64,000 nucleotides of DNA. Source: a virus (taxonomy: Duplodnaviria > Caudoviricetes). The stretch lies in the IMG/VR virus record IMGVR_UViG_645058824_000001, positions 1 to 64,000 of that record. One strand, 5' to 3'. Positions 1-49,279 of the stretch are shown here, one piece after another. The notes under the pieces are model-generated. The model worked only from the letters and a program-made list of their open reading frames with translations. It did not search any database and was not told the origin of the DNA. The stretch's first letter is position 1, and each line of letters opens with the position of its first letter. The position numbers and the translations under genes are program-made.

Positions 1-264
1 ATGGCCATTGATCCGGATGCGGAGATCGATCACGAGGGTCCGGTGACCCCGTACCGGCAGCTCGCCGAGATCCTGAAGGCGCGGATCGCGCGCGGGGACT
101 GGGCACCCGGCCGGCCGATCGCGTCGGAGACGCGGCTGGTGCAGGAGTACGGCCTGGCCCGGTCGACGGTGCGGCGGGCGCTCGCCGTGCTCGTTGAGGA
201 GCGGGTGGTGTGGACGGTGCAGGGGCGTGGCACCTACGTGGGTCAGCCGCCAGCAGAGGGCTAA
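1..264 (+). CDS. GntR-family winged-helix DNA-binding protein (stand-alone HTH)
   Basis: PYRQLAEILKARI...ASETRLVQEYGLARSTVRRALAVL...TVQGRGTYV is the GntR wHTH signature. Confidence 0.88.
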   Translation: MAIDPDAEIDHEGPVTPYRQLAEILKARIARGDWAPGRPIASETRLVQEYGLARSTVRRALAVLVEERVVWTVQGRGTYVGQPPAEG

Positions 265-3336: not shown

Positions 3337-3984
3337 CTACGGTGCGGGCTCGTATTCCACGGTGTCGTCGCACCCGGCGGCCAGGCGTTCCAGGGTCGCG
3401 CGCTCGGTGTCGTCGACAGTCAGACCCCAGCGGAGTTTCGTCGACACCCAGTCCACGGTGTACGTGCAGTGCGCGTCGGTGTTCGGCGGCAGCCACTCCG
3501 CCGGGTCCTGGTCCGCCTTGCTGCGGTTGGTGCGGGCCGTCACCGCGACCAGGCTGCGTTCGGCGTCGAGGTCGTTGGCGTAGGCCTCCCGGCGCTGCGC
3601 CGTCCACGCCGAAGCACCCGAGTCCCACGCCTCCGCGAGCGGCACCACGTGGTCGATGTCCAGCCCGGACGGGACAGTCACCGTCACACCGTCGTAGTAG
3701 GACAGCCACTCCCCCGCCGTCACCCGACACCCCGGCTCCACCATCGGCGCAACCAGCGACTCGGCCAACAGCACCTCCATGCGGGTGTTGCAGCCGTCCC
3801 GGTCGGAGTCCACCCAATGCCGGAACTGGTCGCGGCTGTAGCCCTCGCGGGACTCGTCCGCAGTCGGCAGCGCGGCCACCGCGTCAGCGAGCGGCAGTGA
3901 CACCGGAGCGGCGGAAGCCGGCGTCGCCAGAGGCAGGATCAGGAGGGCGGCGGCAAGCAGGCCGCGCACAGTCGTCTTGAGCAT
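3337..3984 (-). CDS. secreted HNH-type nuclease (DUF1524-like)
   Basis: Signal peptide ending PASA-A; GCNTR, DIDHVVPLAEAWDSGA, ANDL, NRSKADQDP motifs. Confidence 0.85.
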   Translation of the reverse strand: MLKTTVRGLLAAALLILPLATPASAAPVSLPLADAVAALPTADESREGYSRDQFRHWVDSDRDGCNTRMEVLLAESLVAPMVEPGCRVTAGEWLSYYDGVTVTVPSGLDIDHVVPLAEAWDSGASAWTAQRREAYANDLDAERSLVAVTARTNRSKADQDPAEWLPPNTDAHCTYTVDWVSTKLRWGLTVDDTERATLERLAAGCDDTVEYEPAP

Positions 3985-4089
3985 GCCCCGGTGATATCGG
4001 CACCCGACCCCGCCGCAGGCCCGGACCGCGGGCACGTCACCCGAGTGCGGGCAATCCTCACACCGACACGCCAGCTCAGCCGATCACGG

Positions 4090-4440
4090 TCAGGGAATCG
4101 GGACGCTCGTGCACGTCGGGTCCTCCACGCACTCGTCGATCTTCCGACGGTTCTCCGCGCTACGTTCCAACAGCGCCTGCGAGTACATCCCCAACTGGTC
4201 GGGCAGGCCCTCGCACACGGCGGGTCGCTTCTCGAACTCGACCTCCTCGCCGGGCGACTCGACCATGATGGCCAGCCACTCATCGATGCACACCTGCCGC
4301 GCTGCGGCTTCCGACAGGCTCGGCGTCGCCGTCACCGTCTCCGTCACTGCAGGCTGCGGCTTGTCACTTTCGCTGTCGCTGCTGGAGCAGCCGGCCAGCG
4401 TAAGACAGGCGGCGGCGAGCAGAGTGATGGTGCGGCGCAT
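4090..4440 (-). CDS. lipoprotein
   Basis: MRR + hydrophobic stretch + lipobox LAG-C, Ser/Thr linker. Confidence 0.8.
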   Translation of the reverse strand: MRRTITLLAAACLTLAGCSSSDSESDKPQPAVTETVTATPSLSEAAARQVCIDEWLAIMVESPGEEVEFEKRPAVCEGLPDQLGMYSQALLERSAENRRKIDECVEDPTCTSVPIP

Positions 4441-4776
4441 GATGTCCCCCAGTAGTGCGCGGTACTGAAGAGCGGATCGTACCGACGGGACCTGCGCGAC
4501 GAGGCGGGAACAGCAGAAGCCCCGCCGAGACGGGGGAGCCCGGCGGGGCTCCAAGCAGTGTGGCACGAGGGCTGGCAGGACGGGCGGCTTCCACGTAGCG
4601 TGTCCGGGCGGCCTGCCTCGTTCGCAGCGACCCCTCCGGGGGCGTGGGGACTACCCCGCTGGCAGGCCGCGCCCGACGTACAGGGGAGGCGCCATGAGCA
4701 GCGACACCGGCTGGGGATGAACCCCCAGACAGCGCGACGCCCCCGCAGCCAGTCGGCCGCGGGGGCGTCGTCGCGC

Positions 4777-4944
4777 TCAGGCGTCGCCGTCTTCCTTCTC
4801 CTGCTTCTGGATCAGCTCGTCATAGAGGGCTTGGATGCGTGCGTTGGCTTCGGGCGATAGAGGCTTCTGCCAGGTGATCTCGCCGGTCTCGTACCAGATC
4901 TCCATCCAGTCCCGCGGGCGCTCCTCAGGCGAGTCGTCGCTCAC
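4777..4944 (-). CDS. hypothetical protein (55 aa; not in the ORF track)
   Basis: GTG overlaps the recombinase stop; MSDDSPEERPRDWMEIWYETG... Confidence 0.55.
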   Translation of the reverse strand: MSDDSPEERPRDWMEIWYETGEITWQKPLSPEANARIQALYDELIQKQEKEDGDA

Positions 4945-6104
4945 TGCGTCTCCTGCCCCTCGGTCGGCGTAGGTCGGAAGCGGTCGGTGATTCCTCCGAA
5001 GAGGGCTTCGGCGGCGTCGACGTGGGCGGCGTTGCGTTGTCCCTTGTTACGGCGGTTCCAGTAGCCGACGGTGGTGGCGGGGTTGTCGTGGTCGGCGAAC
5101 GCTTGGACCTCTGCCAGCGGTTCCCCTGCGTCGAGCATGTGGGTGATGCGGCTGGCGCGGAGGACGTGCGGGGTGAGCTTCCGGCAGACCTTGCACTTGG
5201 TGAAGGTGTGCCCTGGCTTGTCGACGGTGGGGCAGGTGAGGACGCGGGCCTTGCGGCCGAGGCGGGTGAGGAGTCGGGCGACATCATGCCGGTCCAGCCG
5301 GCGGCCGTCCTTGTCGAGGAGGAGCGGCCCTTCGGTGCGGCCCGCGGTGTGGGCGTCGAGGAGTTCGGCGACGGTGGTGGGGAGCGGGAGGATGCGTTCC
5401 TTGTGTTCCTTGCGGGTGACGTCGAGGTAGGAGCGGCGTCCGCGTTCGATCCTCTTGGTGACGTCGGCGGCGACCATCTCGGTGACGCGTCCGGCGAGGG
5501 TGTAGAGGAGGAGAACGATGAGGGCGTCGAACTCGTTCTCTGCGGCGTTGGCAACGGCCTTCACCTCGTCGACTTCCAGGACGGGGGTGCTGCGGGAGGT
5601 GTTGCCCTTGTCGACCTTGGGTCGGTCGTCCTGGGTGACAGGGTTCCGGGGCAGGTCGATCTTCTCGGCGGCGTAGGTGTGCAGCGAGGAGAGCGCGTTG
5701 AGGTAGCGGGAGATCGTGGTCGACGGTACGCCGCGGCCCTCCATCCGCAGGCGCCATGCGCGGATGTGGTCCGGGTTGAAGATGCCGAGGGCGAACCGCT
5801 CGTGACCCAGCTCCTGGGCGTATCCGCCCCAGACGCGTCGGATGTCGTCCACGTAGTTGCGTTTCGTTTGGAGGCTGCCGCGTCGGGTGGAGGACAGCCA
5901 GTCCATGACCATGACGAAGGTCTCTGGGGTGACGGCTTCGGCGAGGAGTTCGGCGCGGGGCCGGTAGATGCGCTCCTGTCCACGGCGGTCGACTTGGACG
6001 AGGCCGAGGTCGTCGACGAGCTTGCGGCGGACTTCCTCGAAGAGGTCCGAGCCGGGCAGCGCGATCGACTGCCCGGCGGACTGCTGTGGCAGGTTCAACG
6101 TCAC
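4941..6104 (-). CDS. tyrosine recombinase (XerC/Cre-like)
   Basis: Catalytic R (AGRVTE), K (TRKEHK), HxxR (PHVLRAS), H (DHDNP), Y (TTVGY); core-binding domain; GTG overlaps the HAD gene stop. Confidence 0.93.
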   Translation of the reverse strand: MTLNLPQQSAGQSIALPGSDLFEEVRRKLVDDLGLVQVDRRGQERIYRPRAELLAEAVTPETFVMVMDWLSSTRRGSLQTKRNYVDDIRRVWGGYAQELGHERFALGIFNPDHIRAWRLRMEGRGVPSTTISRYLNALSSLHTYAAEKIDLPRNPVTQDDRPKVDKGNTSRSTPVLEVDEVKAVANAAENEFDALIVLLLYTLAGRVTEMVAADVTKRIERGRRSYLDVTRKEHKERILPLPTTVAELLDAHTAGRTEGPLLLDKDGRRLDRHDVARLLTRLGRKARVLTCPTVDKPGHTFTKCKVCRKLTPHVLRASRITHMLDAGEPLAEVQAFADHDNPATTVGYWNRRNKGQRNAAHVDAAEALFGGITDRFRPTPTEGQETQ

Positions 6105-6652
6105 GCCGCCGCCTCGGACAATCCAGCCGCCCACTTGGTCAGCGCCTCGAAGTCTTCGGGTAGCAAGCCGAGCCGAGGGTCCACGTGGTGCAGCAGGGCG
6201 GGGCCGCTGTGGTGGCGCTGCACGTAGTCGCGATCCAGATCGGTGACTTCGTCGTCCACCCACGCGAAGGGGCGTCCGGCCGCGTACTCCACGATGGTCT
6301 TGGTCTTCCAGTGCACTGCGGGCGGCGCCTTCCAGTACGGACTCGACGGCGGCTTCTCGTCCGGCCATTCGATGACGGGCAGCGGAGGCAGGCCGATGTG
6401 CGGGCCGATCCACTCGTTGGCCTCGTGCATCCAGGTTGTAGCCCAGACGAGAGAGAAGGGCAGCGCGAGGAGTTCCGCGCCGTGTCCGTGGTTCAGCCAG
6501 ACCCTCAAGGGCTTCTGGTACGGCTGCTCCCAGCCGCTCGGACGCATTCGGTGCGTGCTGTACCCCTCGGGGCGTCGAGACGGTTTGGCCATCCATGGGT
6601 TCAGAGGGCCGTCCACATCGAGTAACAGCAGTGGTGGCGTGACGGTTTCCAT
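6101..6652 (-). CDS. HAD-superfamily phosphatase (Swiss-army-knife RNA-repair-like)
   Basis: LLLDVDGPLNP motif I, WATTW, WKT, AWVDDE. Confidence 0.85.
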   Translation of the reverse strand: METVTPPLLLLDVDGPLNPWMAKPSRRPEGYSTHRMRPSGWEQPYQKPLRVWLNHGHGAELLALPFSLVWATTWMHEANEWIGPHIGLPPLPVIEWPDEKPPSSPYWKAPPAVHWKTKTIVEYAAGRPFAWVDDEVTDLDRDYVQRHHSGPALLHHVDPRLGLLPEDFEALTKWAAGLSEAAA

Positions 6653-6674
6653 ACCTCACAGGGTATCAATTTTC

Positions 6675-6701
6675 TAGCGCATAAGGGAACGTTATGCGCT
6701 A
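6675..6701. other. candidate tyrosine-recombinase site (dif/lox-like)
   Basis: TAGCGCATAA-GGGAACG-TTATGCGCTA: perfect 10-bp arms with an asymmetric 7-bp spacer, in an AT-rich patch upstream of the HAD-recombinase operon. Confidence 0.6.
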
Positions 6702-6776
6702 TCTCTGCGGATGAGGCCCTGCTGACAAGGCGCCCCGTCTTCGGCAGACTCGCGGCGCTGGAACGCGAACGAAGGG

Positions 6777-6965
6777 GTGGACATGGCAGAGCTCAGCTAC
6801 GAGCAGCTACAGGCGCGGGCACTCAGCAACTTGGACAACGCTTACGGCGAGAGAGCCGGCTCTGACGATCAGGTGGCGGCCCTCACGAGGGCTCAGGTGC
6901 ATGCCCTGCTGACGGTCGGCGCGGCAATGAAGGATCTGGCGCAGGCAATCCGCGAGGGCCGCTAG
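6777..6965 (+). CDS. hypothetical protein
   Basis: 62-aa helical ORF followed by a terminator. Confidence 0.55.
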   Translation: MDMAELSYEQLQARALSNLDNAYGERAGSDDQVAALTRAQVHALLTVGAAMKDLAQAIREGR

Positions 6966-6974
6966 AACGAGCTG

Positions 6975-7021
6975 CGCCCCCGCTCCCCCGTCGTGACGGG
7001 CTGGAGCGGGGGCGTTGTCGT
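6975..7021. terminator. hairpin terminator (copy A)
   Basis: CGCCCCCGCTCC/GGAGCGGGGGCG + TTGTCGT. Confidence 0.7.
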
Positions 7022-7100
7022 GTCACGGCTCGGTGACGGACGGCTACCTGTAGGGCGTGTGTGGTCTACGGTGATCCGACGTTCAACCTTGGGGGGACTC

Positions 7101-7718
7101 ATGCGCACACGCGCTACCGCGGCTGTGGCCGCGATGCTTCTGGCGGCTCTCACCGCATGCGGCGGCGGGGACGACAGTCCGACGGCGGACACGAAGCCGT
7201 CCGCGGTCGAGACGCCGGGCGGGGAGCCGACGTCCGGGCAGGTCGAGGAGAGTATGAAGCTCGGCGAGCCGGCCCAGACAGTCGGTGACGGCGGCGAGGG
7301 CACGCTGGAGATCACGCCGGACACGATCGTCTTCGTGAAGGAAGGCGGCGGCGAGACCTCGGAGAACGGTACCTTCGTCGTCGTCACGATGAAGGACAAG
7401 GTGACGTCGGACGTCGCCGCGGATGAGCCGGCGCCGATCACGGGCGGGGGCTGGAAGTGGATGGCCCCGGACGGGGAGATGATCGGCTTCGATAGCGGCA
7501 ACTCGTCCGGGGTGGTGATGGACAAGTACAACAACGCCGACCCCGTCCAGCCGGGCGCCTACCAGTGGCGGGCCCAGGTCTTCGACCTGACGGAGGAGCA
7601 GGCGAAGGGGGGCACGCTCATCTACATCGACGGCGAGGAGAAGGCGCACCGCTGGCAGATGCCGTCCACCGACAGCGGGCCGAACGTGGCCGAGGTGAAG
7701 AAGCAGCTGGAGTTCTGA
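7101..7718 (+). CDS. lipoprotein (possibly DUF4352-like beta-sandwich)
   Basis: Lipobox LTA-C after MRTR + hydrophobic stretch; GGGGGA RBS. Confidence 0.8.
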   Translation: MRTRATAAVAAMLLAALTACGGGDDSPTADTKPSAVETPGGEPTSGQVEESMKLGEPAQTVGDGGEGTLEITPDTIVFVKEGGGETSENGTFVVVTMKDKVTSDVAADEPAPITGGGWKWMAPDGEMIGFDSGNSSGVVMDKYNNADPVQPGAYQWRAQVFDLTEEQAKGGTLIYIDGEEKAHRWQMPSTDSGPNVAEVKKQLEF

Positions 7719-47182: not shown

Positions 47183-49279
47183 CTATCGGGCGGCGGTGAG
47201 ATCGGCGAGCCGGAACCCGCGAGCTTCCTTACCCTCCGCCGTCGCGACCTTCACCGCCTTGATGTCGAGGCCCTCAGCCGCCATCGAAGCGGCCAGGAGC
47301 TTCCCCACCCGCGCGCTGTACTGCGCATCGGTCTCATCGACCCGGTAGCCGTACCGCTCGTCGACCGTCGCGAGGTACGCGAACACCTCGGCCCGCGTCG
47401 CCTCTCCCCTGCCGGTGGCCTCGGCGGCGTCGATCAGGTGGTCCAGCAGGGTCAGGACGGCCGGAGTCGACCCGATGCGCCCCTTGCCGCTCTCGCCGCC
47501 GGCCGCCGAGGAAACGCCGGTCTCGGCGAGCAGGTACTCCTCGATCGGGTCCTTCCACTGGCCGGGGAGCCGACCGGCGGCCTTGCGGATCTCGTAGGCC
47601 TCTTCTGCCGCCCGCCGCTTGTCGTCGGGCTTGACCAGGTAAGAGCGGACCTGGATGACGCCGGTCTCCGGGGTAGACAGCCAGGCCCGGCCCGGCTGGG
47701 TCAGCGGGATCTTCGAGGCGTCGTGGCCCTGACCGGTCATGCCGTCGCCAAGAATGGTGTTCGAGGCAGTGCCCGACTCGGTGTTCATGGCGGCGCGGGA
47801 GGTGTGGTTCTGGCGGAGCCGGCCGCGGACGACGTCGACCTCGGGCACCTGGGTGAGGCTGATCAGGGTGATGCCGAGGGCGGCGCCGACGGCGGCGATC
47901 TGCGACAGGTTCTCGGTGATCTCGTCGGCGTAGGGGCTGGTGCCCTTCGGGGTGTAGGTGGCCAGCTCGTCGACGATGAAGACCTCACGGCCGCCGAGCA
48001 GCTGCATGCACTCCTCGTAGTTCTCGTCGTCGATCTTCTCGTAGCCGTGCTCGTCGAGCAGGTCGGAGCGGCGGTCCATCTCGGCGACGATCGCACGGGT
48101 GGCAAGGGCCAGCCGCTGGGCGTTGCGCTTGGTGAACGTGCCCATGATCCGCGCATAGGCGTTGTGCTCGGCGGTGCCCTTGCCGTCGAAGATCCGCACG
48201 TTGACCCACGGGTCCTTCGCCACGCCGATCAGGATGTTCGCCAGCAGCATGCCCTTACCGCGGCGGGTGGCGCCGCCCACGATGAGGCTGCTGTCCCGGA
48301 TCCACAGGGTGATGGGCTCGCCGCGCTTACCGAACGCGACCTTGATGCCATCGCGGAAGGTGTTGATCGGCCCTTCGTGGTCGAGGAGCGGGGAGCGCCG
48401 CACGATGGCGAAGGGGTCGCTGCTGGCCACCCATACCTTCAGCCGGGACTCAATGTCGCCGACTTCCAGGTCGAGCCAGTCCTGGTGGACGGCGAGCGCG
48501 GACGCGATCTGCTGCTTCCTGGCCACCGCGACTGCGGCGGGAATCCCGGACGGCAGGTCGACTTCGTAGGCGATGCCTGGGCCTTCGGTGTGGGGGATGC
48601 CGACGCCGCGGATCTCGGCGGCCCGCTTCTCGGGGACGGCTCCGGCTTCGACGAGGACCCGGCGCATGGTGTCTTCGCCAAGGTGGCTGGTGCGGGTCGG
48701 CGCCTGGATCGGGACGACCGCGGGTTCCTCGGGCCGGCCGAACCATGCGCCGGTGAAGACGAACGCGAGGGCGAGGAGGATCTGCACCCACAGTCCGCCG
48801 ACCGCGGCGGCGATCGTGCCGCCGCCGACGATGATCAGACCGCTGATGCCGGTGCGGATCCAGTGCCGCTTCTTGTGCGCCTTGAACTCGGCGCGGCGGA
48901 CCTGGAGCACGGCACGGGCTCGCGCCTCGTCGGCCGGCTTGCCCTTGGCGGCCCGGAGCATCTGCTTGGCGGACGCGATCTCCTGCCGGTAGTCGTCGTG
49001 CCGGGCTTCCCACCAGCGGAGGCAGAGGCGGCGGTAGCCGCGCACGGACCAGCCGAGGTAGTACGGCGTGTGCGTGACCTGGTACACGGTCCAGTCGATC
49101 GCGTTGTCGCGGGCGTACACGACCCACTGCCGCAGCTGCTCGCCGGAGAGCATCCAGCCGGGGCGGGGGCGCTTCTCGAACTCGTAGACGCGGGCCGGCT
49201 CGGGGTCCTTGGTGAGCGTGGCGGTGATCTGCTCCCACTCCGGATCCGGGGTGCTGCTGGGGGTCGTCTCGATGCTCAC
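47183..49279 (-). CDS. traB: TraB-type FtsK/SpoIIIE conjugative DNA translocase
   Basis: N-terminal TMs, Walker A GGATRRGKG, Walker B IVDE, GITLISLTQ, C-terminal wHTH-like region. Confidence 0.88.
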   Translation of the reverse strand: MSIETTPSSTPDPEWEQITATLTKDPEPARVYEFEKRPRPGWMLSGEQLRQWVVYARDNAIDWTVYQVTHTPYYLGWSVRGYRRLCLRWWEARHDDYRQEIASAKQMLRAAKGKPADEARARAVLQVRRAEFKAHKKRHWIRTGISGLIIVGGGTIAAAVGGLWVQILLALAFVFTGAWFGRPEEPAVVPIQAPTRTSHLGEDTMRRVLVEAGAVPEKRAAEIRGVGIPHTEGPGIAYEVDLPSGIPAAVAVARKQQIASALAVHQDWLDLEVGDIESRLKVWVASSDPFAIVRRSPLLDHEGPINTFRDGIKVAFGKRGEPITLWIRDSSLIVGGATRRGKGMLLANILIGVAKDPWVNVRIFDGKGTAEHNAYARIMGTFTKRNAQRLALATRAIVAEMDRRSDLLDEHGYEKIDDENYEECMQLLGGREVFIVDELATYTPKGTSPYADEITENLSQIAAVGAALGITLISLTQVPEVDVVRGRLRQNHTSRAAMNTESGTASNTILGDGMTGQGHDASKIPLTQPGRAWLSTPETGVIQVRSYLVKPDDKRRAAEEAYEIRKAAGRLPGQWKDPIEEYLLAETGVSSAAGGESGKGRIGSTPAVLTLLDHLIDAAEATGRGEATRAEVFAYLATVDERYGYRVDETDAQYSARVGKLLAASMAAEGLDIKAVKVATAEGKEARGFRLADLTAAR

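Follow-up and report, generated by a model that had tools for sequence, protein, structure and literature searches.

Cre/loxP of phage P1 combines a single phage-borne tyrosine recombinase with a site that lies near its gene, occurs in one copy per genome and consists of symmetric arms around an asymmetric spacer, with no accessory sequences. The single-recombinase Xer systems (XerH/difH, XerS/difSL and archaeal XerA/dif) pair a two-domain Xer-type protein with a near-palindromic dif-like site that has inner CATAA...TTATG bases and adjoins the recombinase gene, whereas XerCD employs two paralogues on dif, which has two different arms around a 6-bp centre, and on cer and psi, which come with an accessory region of ~180 bp. 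Here, we analysed a 64,000-nucleotide stretch of DNA (the window; positions 1 to 64,000 of IMG/VR virus record IMGVR_UViG_645058824_000001, Caudoviricetes; G+C ~69%), in which a palindromic site stands ahead of an operon encoding a HAD-like protein and a tyrosine recombinase (4941–6701). An earlier reading of this sequence (the original prediction) had proposed a Cre/loxP-like self-resolution system of an extrachromosomal prophage or, failing that, an unintegrated attP. Comparison with related elements indicates that the palindrome is very probably the cognate binding and crossover site of the adjacent recombinase; that the whole constitutes a cognate-site, self-regulating, plasmid-derived resolution unit of the Cre/loxP kind is a reading to which we give about an even chance.

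The site spans 27 bp (6675–6701) and consists of the arms TAGCGCATAA (6675–6684) and TTATGCGCTA (6692–6701) around the spacer GGGAACG (6685–6691), which reads CGTTCCC on the operon strand. Its perfect 10-bp arms, complementary at 10 of 10 positions, its asymmetric 7-bp core and its distance of 23 bp from the operon (ATG at 6652, site from 6675) are as originally described, and each arm does resemble, as stated there, the E. coli dif XerC arm (GCGCATAA followed by TTATG). The site thus shares its general design with loxP, but it has a 10-7-10 layout and overlaps a putative promoter, whereas loxP is 13-8-13; unlike cer and psi, it has no accessory region, and its flanks are not conserved. None of 100 shuffles matched the 27-bp sequence, which occurs once in the window and once in the whole 82,137-bp record; the proposed search of the rest of the element for a partner found neither a second copy nor a half-site. 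Although a single 10-bp inverted repeat per 64 kb is not unusual by itself, the palindrome is more than chance because the identical 27-mer adjoins relatives of the recombinase in IMG/VR contigs and Streptomyces genomes. A protelomerase acting on a telRL-type site, which would be a perfect palindrome served by an enzyme of >440 aa on a linear replicon with hairpin ends, was ruled out by the asymmetric central 7 bp and by the 387-aa Xer-type protein.

The first operon gene (6652–6101, minus strand) encodes the HAD-like protein, with 183 aa, a DVDG motif near the N-terminus and a weak match to Pfam HAD_SAK_2 (E 1e-3, under the curated cut-off). Its stop codon overlaps the GTG start of the recombinase gene at 6104 (GTGA), so the two appear translationally coupled. 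The recombinase itself (387 aa; 6104–4941, minus strand) is, judged by its profile matches, a member of the tyrosine recombinase superfamily belonging to the wider Xer-like group. It matches PF00589 (8.2e-15, above cut-off) and the SAM-like PF02899 (2e-6), and the NCBIfam models XerC (4.7e-25, residues 68–348, 88.6 bits; equivalog cut-off 335), XerA (4.9e-22, 78.8 bits; equivalog cut-off 220), XerD (5e-19, 68.7 bits; equivalog cut-off 330) and XerS (29.2 bits; cut-off 267). The matches extend over the two domains and indicate affinity with the Xer group, but with scores far under the cut-offs, which ruled out an equivalog of XerC, XerD, XerA or XerS. Among the solved relatives in the PDB are XerA of archaea (4a8e) and XerD of E. 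coli (1a0p), and alignment with both suggests R206, K235, H313, R316, H339 and Y348 as candidate catalytic residues; Cre was not among the PDB matches at E ≤ 0.01. Relative to the single-recombinase Xer systems, which resolve chromosome dimers at the terminus under the control of FtsK, the unit differs in being carried by a mobile element rather than a chromosome, in its 7-bp spacer, in an N-terminal extension of ~60 aa and in a Cys/His-rich insert, C-x8-H-x5-C-x2-C, at residues 291–307 (window 5152–5234), directly before the HxxR motif. This insert could be a zinc-binding element, which would be unusual for Xer-type enzymes. Searches with Pfam and NCBIfam found the SAM-like core-binding and catalytic domains only, and no arm-binding domain.

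Conservation of the site among relatives of the recombinase is the first line of evidence for their pairing. Scanning IMG/VR for the exact arms returned 17 contigs, and a protein scan returned 18 loci with recombinases 58–92% identical to that of the window. The same-spacer 27-mer is present in 15 of these 18 loci (exact in 14, with one arm mismatch in L021), 290–940 bp upstream of the recombinase gene and with constant polarity (CGTTCCC on the coding strand). At a sixteenth locus (L035, recombinase 65% identical), the site abuts the gene and its spacer is inverted, this being the one element in which spacer polarity relative to the gene differs. All 27 bases, those of the spacer included, are identical in ~25 related Streptomyces prophages with recombinases 74–92% identical; the recombinase genes are 75–90% identical in DNA, yet the site is 100% identical. 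Sequences beyond its outer edge are unrelated among elements, and on the operon side only ~20 nt are shared. The position between site and recombinase is occupied by genes of at least 10 unrelated families (HAD-like here, Thg1-like in L047, several without a known family), in most cases translationally coupled to the recombinase; an obligatory partnership between the HAD-like protein and the recombinase was ruled out by this variety.

The same picture emerges from a sample of 185,579 species genomes, in which the site with the GGGAACG spacer is confined to ~10 Streptomyces or Kitasatospora genomes, one per genome, on large chromosomal contigs (172 kb to 10 Mb). Wherever the flank sufficed, its neighbour was a tyrosine recombinase; at L048, the flank is too short to tell. 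The search of host chromosomes for a second copy, which had been suggested as a check, was made in five lysogen genomes, each of which holds exactly one site with this spacer (≤3 arm mismatches allowed). A PLSDB search with the 32-bp site gave no Streptomyces match, and no close homologue of the recombinase was found in GenBank isolated phages, in which the best matches are ~30% identical integrases of Arthrobacter phages.

More distant homologues carry sites of the same build at the equivalent position. In the prophage L037, whose recombinase is 58% identical, the site reads TCCGCATAA-CGTTCAC-TTATGCGGA. Recombinases of Streptomycetaceae plasmids and phage-plasmids (pFP3, NC_023067; pCQ4, NC_019307; CP108844; NZ_CP115453), annotated only as 'tyrosine-type recombinase/integrase', are 38–53% identical over nearly their full length, and their sites lie 10–20 nt upstream of a leaderless-type start: AGCCTCATAA-TTCACG-TTAAGAGGCT in pFP3, ACACTTAA-CACACG-TTATGTGT in pCQ4 (beside a Phd/YefM gene), AGCCTCTTAA-TTCAGA-TTAAGAGGCT in a 21.6-kb plasmid (with ParA nearby) and AACGCATAA-TTCACG-TTATGCGCT in a Kitasatospora plasmid, together with four further plasmid-type variants. 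Across this set, the outer arm bases change in mirror fashion on both arms, and the inner (C)WTAA / TTAWG bases are constant. A maximum-likelihood tree of 27 recombinases separates a prophage clade with a 7-bp CGTTCNC spacer from two plasmid clades with 6-bp spacers of CGTGAA type or CGTGTG type, such that spacer type tracks recombinase clade. Relative to the window unit, the plasmid homologues thus mostly have a 6-bp spacer and different outer arm bases, and several are without a cargo gene between site and recombinase.

Covarying arms and a spacer that follows the recombinase clade are what would be expected if the site were the enzyme's own core site, and binding by an unrelated repressor only, the outcome that would have spoken against the original prediction, is hard to reconcile with these data. 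Co-occurrence, arm covariation and clade-specific spacers together support the palindrome as the partner of the adjacent recombinase, with two identical 10-bp binding arms that would flank a 7-bp crossover region, so that one recombinase and one simple site would form a self-contained system. They also bear on a further possibility, in which the site is a substrate of host XerC and XerD, as in integrative mobile elements exploiting Xer (IMEX), with the phage protein a mere helper. Both arms do contain GCGCATAA, the XerC arm of dif, and near-identical sites at L014 and L043 adjoin very divergent tyrosine recombinases. However, dif is bound by two paralogues, whereas this unit has one, element-encoded recombinase and identical arms, none of them of XerD type; the spacer measures 7 bp; arm sequence varies together with the enzyme that the element encodes; and the elements are not integrated at a dif-like site. 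We consider a host XerC/XerD substrate very improbable.

Sites of similar appearance are found elsewhere. Five Streptomyces genomes (G001–G005) each contain three CATAA-N7-TTATG sites and none with N6 (0–1 for a control pattern), for example at G001:C1:1854618, G005:C13:196929 and G002:C6:172733. Those other than the prophage site fall into recurring types, such as GCYCATAA-ACCCAGC-TTATGRGC, that lie away from PF00589 genes and could be host sites, or sites of other elements, with the same geometry; they were excluded as partners of the 27-bp site because their spacers differ and no recombinase adjoins them. The same 10-bp arms also occur in unrelated bacteria, within longer palindromes in L044 (Brevundimonas) and L045 (Sphingobium), for example TTATGCGGTT-TAGCGCATAA-N7-TTATGCGCTA-AACCGCATAA, and L015 has a fully symmetric version with 13-bp arms.

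The position of the site relative to the operon start is equally regular. An ATG-proximal TAnnnT is the arrangement expected for leaderless actinobacterial mRNAs, and a hexamer of this form stands 5–7 nt before the first-gene ATG in 19 of 23 related loci. In 13 of them, it starts at the last TA of the site (for example, TAGAAT-TTGAGG-ATG); in six, the window included, it starts 11 nt further on. The window hexamer, TACCCT (6665–6660, minus strand), lies 7 nt upstream of the ATG at 6652 and is a candidate −10 element in leaderless geometry. With +1 at 6652, the site would extend from about −49 to −23 in the window, and from −38 to −12 in the 13-locus group. From this recurrent TAnnnT geometry, we infer that the site overlaps a leaderless-type promoter of the recombinase operon. 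The proposed overlap with the −35 zone stands only if TACCCT is the −10 element, and a strict scan with the generic sigma-70 consensus found no promoter at the site. Autoregulation, also part of the original prediction, is plausible because the site overlaps the putative operon promoter: the bound recombinase would govern its own expression together with that of the preceding cargo gene, here the HAD-like gene.

Such an arrangement could equally be read as an operator and nothing else, with the recombinase-family protein, or another factor, binding the palindrome solely to repress or activate the cargo operon and without strand exchange there. This would fit the overlap with the putative promoter in nearly all relatives, the single copy per genome, which leaves the partner site normally absent, and the location of the unit in an accessory, moron-like arm with variable cargo genes. 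It would not explain why candidates for all catalytic residues, the tyrosine included, are present, nor why the spacer is asymmetric, invariant and fixed in polarity, none of which is needed by the operator of a symmetric dimer. The 10-bp arms, 6–7-bp spacer and inner CATAA/TTATG bases are, moreover, the geometry of a Xer core site, and the homologous plasmid units lie among stability genes. An operator function alone is therefore unlikely in our view.

The setting of the unit within the element was clarified by integrated relatives. The complete 10.4-Mb chromosome G001 carries a syntenic 92.6-kb prophage between 20-bp direct repeats (C1:7968282–7968301 and 8060892–8060911), the left of which is adjoined by a canonical 427-aa integrase (PF00589 and Phage_int_M); the 27-bp site (8053454) is intact and is located, with the Xer-like gene, 7 kb inward of the right end. 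In G002, a 74.5-kb prophage is bounded by 28-bp direct repeats (C3:416755–416782 and 491261–491288), attL is adjoined by the gene for a 430-aa protein that matches Phage_int_M weakly and has an XRE gene as its neighbour, and the site is again internal (486616), with the unit in the orientation opposite to that in G001. The intact site is thus 5–7 kb inside the prophage end in both, and second, end-located integrases are also present in G003, G004, G005, G006, G007, G008 and G010. The candidate att cores are located at the 3′ end of an HTH_22 gene (the 20-bp repeat) and in a promoter region beside a MerR-like gene (the 28-bp repeat).

The original prediction was therefore right that the site is not an attL or attR, as it lies unbroken within prophages whose ends are marked by other direct repeats. 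The suggestion of an unintegrated attP fails on the same ground, and five lysogen genomes hold no second or hybrid copy. That the site is the phage attP (or attL/attR) and the recombinase the integrase could be argued from the fact that this is the only recombinase found inside the record and that the site adjoins its gene, as is often the case for attP; the enzyme also belongs to the same superfamily as lambda-type integrases, and its 7-bp spacer resembles the 7-bp overlap of lambda. Unlike lambda-type systems, however, the unit has neither an arm-binding domain nor arm-type sites, its site is unsplit in integrated relatives, and no recombinase-less chromosomal copy that might be an attB was present among the sufficiently flanked matches in the genome sample. 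We regard an att function as the least probable of the alternatives, with hardly any chance of being correct.

These comparisons also bear on whether the element is a plasmid prophage, as the original prediction assumed. The record is classed as a provirus in IMG/VR, with a CheckV completeness estimate of 100%, and its limits coincide with gene boundaries: the first base belongs to an ATG start and the last to a stop codon. Its end genes are a GntR-type helix-turn-helix gene at the left edge (1–264, plus strand; Pfam GntR 1.2e-15) and an XRE gene at the right end (81724–82137). These correspond to the genes adjoining attR and attL, respectively, in G002, and GntR-gene homologues sit 0.5–1.5 kb inside attR of the G001 and G002 prophages. 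Because the end genes match these att neighbours, the integrase of the element would probably lie just outside the 82-kb cut-out. Gene calling based on G+C at third codon positions identified head, tail, lysis and replication genes in the record, in which the Xer-like recombinase is the only PF00589 match (n = 1); neither a serine recombinase nor a second integrase was found inside the record, and no tRNA gene was found in the window.

Dimer resolution for an extrachromosomal prophage would be in keeping with the lack of another integrase in the record and with the occurrence of homologous units on circular plasmids and phage-plasmids of Streptomyces (pCQ4, and pFP3 with its terminase and ParA). 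Against this stand the provirus class, the cut at gene boundaries at both ends, the correspondence of the end genes with the att neighbours of integrated G002, the location of close relatives on chromosomal contigs of 172 kb to 10 Mb, the other repeats that bound them and the end integrases of G006, G007, G008 and G010. A plasmid prophage of the P1, N15 or pZL12 kind was also sought through its partition genes, but no ParB_N or AAA_31 match, that is, no ParA or ParB gene, was detected in the record (G000) or in four relatives. The extrachromosomal setting is thus improbable, and in this respect the window unit differs both from Cre/loxP, which resides on a plasmid prophage, and from its own plasmid homologues, which are carried by extrachromosomal replicons and have ParA or toxin-antitoxin genes as neighbours. 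A plasmid prophage can be argued neither from the palindrome nor from the fact that the recombinase lies internally.

The unit is accessory and lies in the variable arm between the lysis genes and attR. Of 36 prophage loci with a gene for a related lysin, only 2 have a unit within 9 kb, and in L085 and L086, which are 99.9% identical over 10.3 kb, the sequences diverge 1.9 kb before the site. An inversion switch was ruled out, as each element has a single site; for this reason, the opposite orientations in G001 and G002 must reflect an older rearrangement.

Another possibility is that the site serves for docking or exchange, by joining the element to other site-bearing DNA, such as a superinfecting related phage, a co-resident element or an unseen secondary attB, with co-integrates and, over time, swapped cargo genes and genome arms as the outcome. 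Homology between related phages indeed ends at the site edges, unrelated genes take each other's place between site and recombinase, the unit is found either way round between the same neighbours, with the spacer inverted in one element, and a simple site without accessory DNA would permit intermolecular reactions. Yet the five lysogen genomes hold no hybrid or second site, the exact site is restricted to ~10 of 185,579 species genomes, beside a tyrosine recombinase wherever the flank sufficed, and it is absent from PLSDB plasmids. In addition, the homology break between L085 and L086 is 1.9 kb from the site, the cargo genes overlap the recombinase start and so leave no room for a second site, and ordinary phage mosaicism accounts for the pattern. 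This explanation, too, seems unlikely. A more elaborate version, to which we attach little probability, is a portable expression-and-exchange slot, in which the fixed 27-bp recombination site doubles as a leaderless promoter and precedes an exchangeable cargo gene, with the recombinase last. Cargo genes and whole genome arms would then pass between co-resident prophages and plasmids by site-specific crossover in the spacer, combined with homologous exchange in the recombinase gene; this would amount to an integron-like function achieved by a different architecture in actinobacterial mobile elements. An integron proper, with an IntI-type integrase, an attI next to a divergent intI and an attC at the end of each cassette, was rejected: matches to the integron-integrase models are restricted to the C-terminal 50 residues and far under cut-off, the cargo gene stands between the site and a recombinase of the same direction, whose start it overlaps, and no attC-like second site fits.

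Returning to the resolution unit, we propose that it is a plasmid-derived accessory module in an integrated Streptomyces prophage, whose integration, as in related prophages, would be the task of a different, end-located integrase. The recombinase would act on two directly repeated copies of the site, thereby reducing dimers or multimers to single units, a role in dimer resolution that it would share with XerCD; its substrates might be tandem double prophages or the circular genome when excised, replicating or transferred. Three observations suggest this role. First, the design resembles that of Cre/loxP, for which multimer resolution is likewise the role: one recombinase, symmetric arms, an asymmetric spacer and no conserved accessory DNA. 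To this extent, the Cre/loxP-like design of the original prediction fits; its extrachromosomal setting is not supported. Second, the homologues on circular plasmids and phage-plasmids adjoin ParA or toxin-antitoxin genes, as multimer-resolution systems usually do. Third, the virion-encoding prophage contains a gene for a 698-aa, TraB-like FtsK/SpoIIIE-domain protein (47183–49279; domain E 1.9e-7), which suggests a free circular phase in which resolution would be useful. Resolution of multimers or tandem copies as the biological role has, in our estimate, slightly less than an even chance or at best an even one.

Several of the results weigh against this reading as a whole or in part. The role is its weakest link, as it is not obvious why a prophage integrated in single copy would need multimer resolution and a search for partition genes found none, and the rarity of the unit near the lysin-encoding loci (2 of 36) implies that it is dispensable. 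No natural product of a two-site reaction was seen, neither a hybrid or second site in the five lysogen genomes (≤3 arm mismatches) nor a deletion between two sites. With regard to the pairing, no such site was found in one clade of plasmid homologues (L071, L074 and L075), and the very divergent recombinases beside the L014 and L043 sites leave room for a host factor or a shared ancestral arm specificity, which could be an alternative cause of site conservation. The promoter overlap has the sigma-70 scan against it.

The comparison delineates a family of uncharacterised Xer-type recombinases that are encoded by prophages, phage-plasmids and plasmids of Streptomycetaceae, with a cognate site that can be read from the DNA for each clade (10-7-10 or 10-6-10, with covarying arms). 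In the literature searched, we found no paper on this family and no experimental study of its plasmid homologues (the pFP3, pCQ4 and pZL12 recombinases) or of multimer resolution in Streptomyces. If the proteins are active, they would provide compact, cofactor-free tools of the Cre/lox type that are native to high-G+C actinomycetes, including several naturally orthogonal site/enzyme pairs. The distribution also raises the question of why an integrating prophage with its own integrase retains a plasmid-style resolution unit; a possible answer is the TraB-type transfer gene on the same element, as resolution would be useful to a free replicating circle.

Pairing of a HAD-like gene with a tyrosine recombinase is also seen outside this family. 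On two plasmids (L002:1849–3542, NZ_CP109474; L003:101–1794, NZ_CP108204), a tyrosine recombinase gene is again directly preceded, and overlapped, by a gene homologous to the HAD-like one (66% aa identity); this recombinase has no detectable similarity to that of the window (tblastn E > 1e-3), and no upstream palindrome is present. By sequence comparison, the pairing thus occurs with two unrelated recombinases.

Downstream of the recombinase gene, a 55-aa open reading frame (4777–4944, minus strand), without a Pfam match, has a GTG start that overlaps the recombinase stop (GTGA) and is a possible third operon gene. A long, perfect, G+C-rich hairpin (4735–4779, minus strand) follows directly and probably marks the end of the operon. 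It lacks a T-run and was not listed by the terminator scan; the predicted RNA fold of 4480–4780 on the minus strand has z = −3.0. Further downstream, blastn revealed two short conserved non-coding islands (4511–4571 and 4572–4673), with blocks of 76–91% identity in L022, L023, L025, L026, L032, L042 and L051, at a distance from the recombinase gene that varies among relatives; Rfam gave no credible match in 3500–7500, islands included. In the same accessory arm, a 232-aa protein (3337–4035) has a hydrophobic N-terminus and a GmrSD_C-type nuclease domain (E 2e-10), and related genes on S. rimosus plasmids are annotated as 'HNH endonuclease family protein'.

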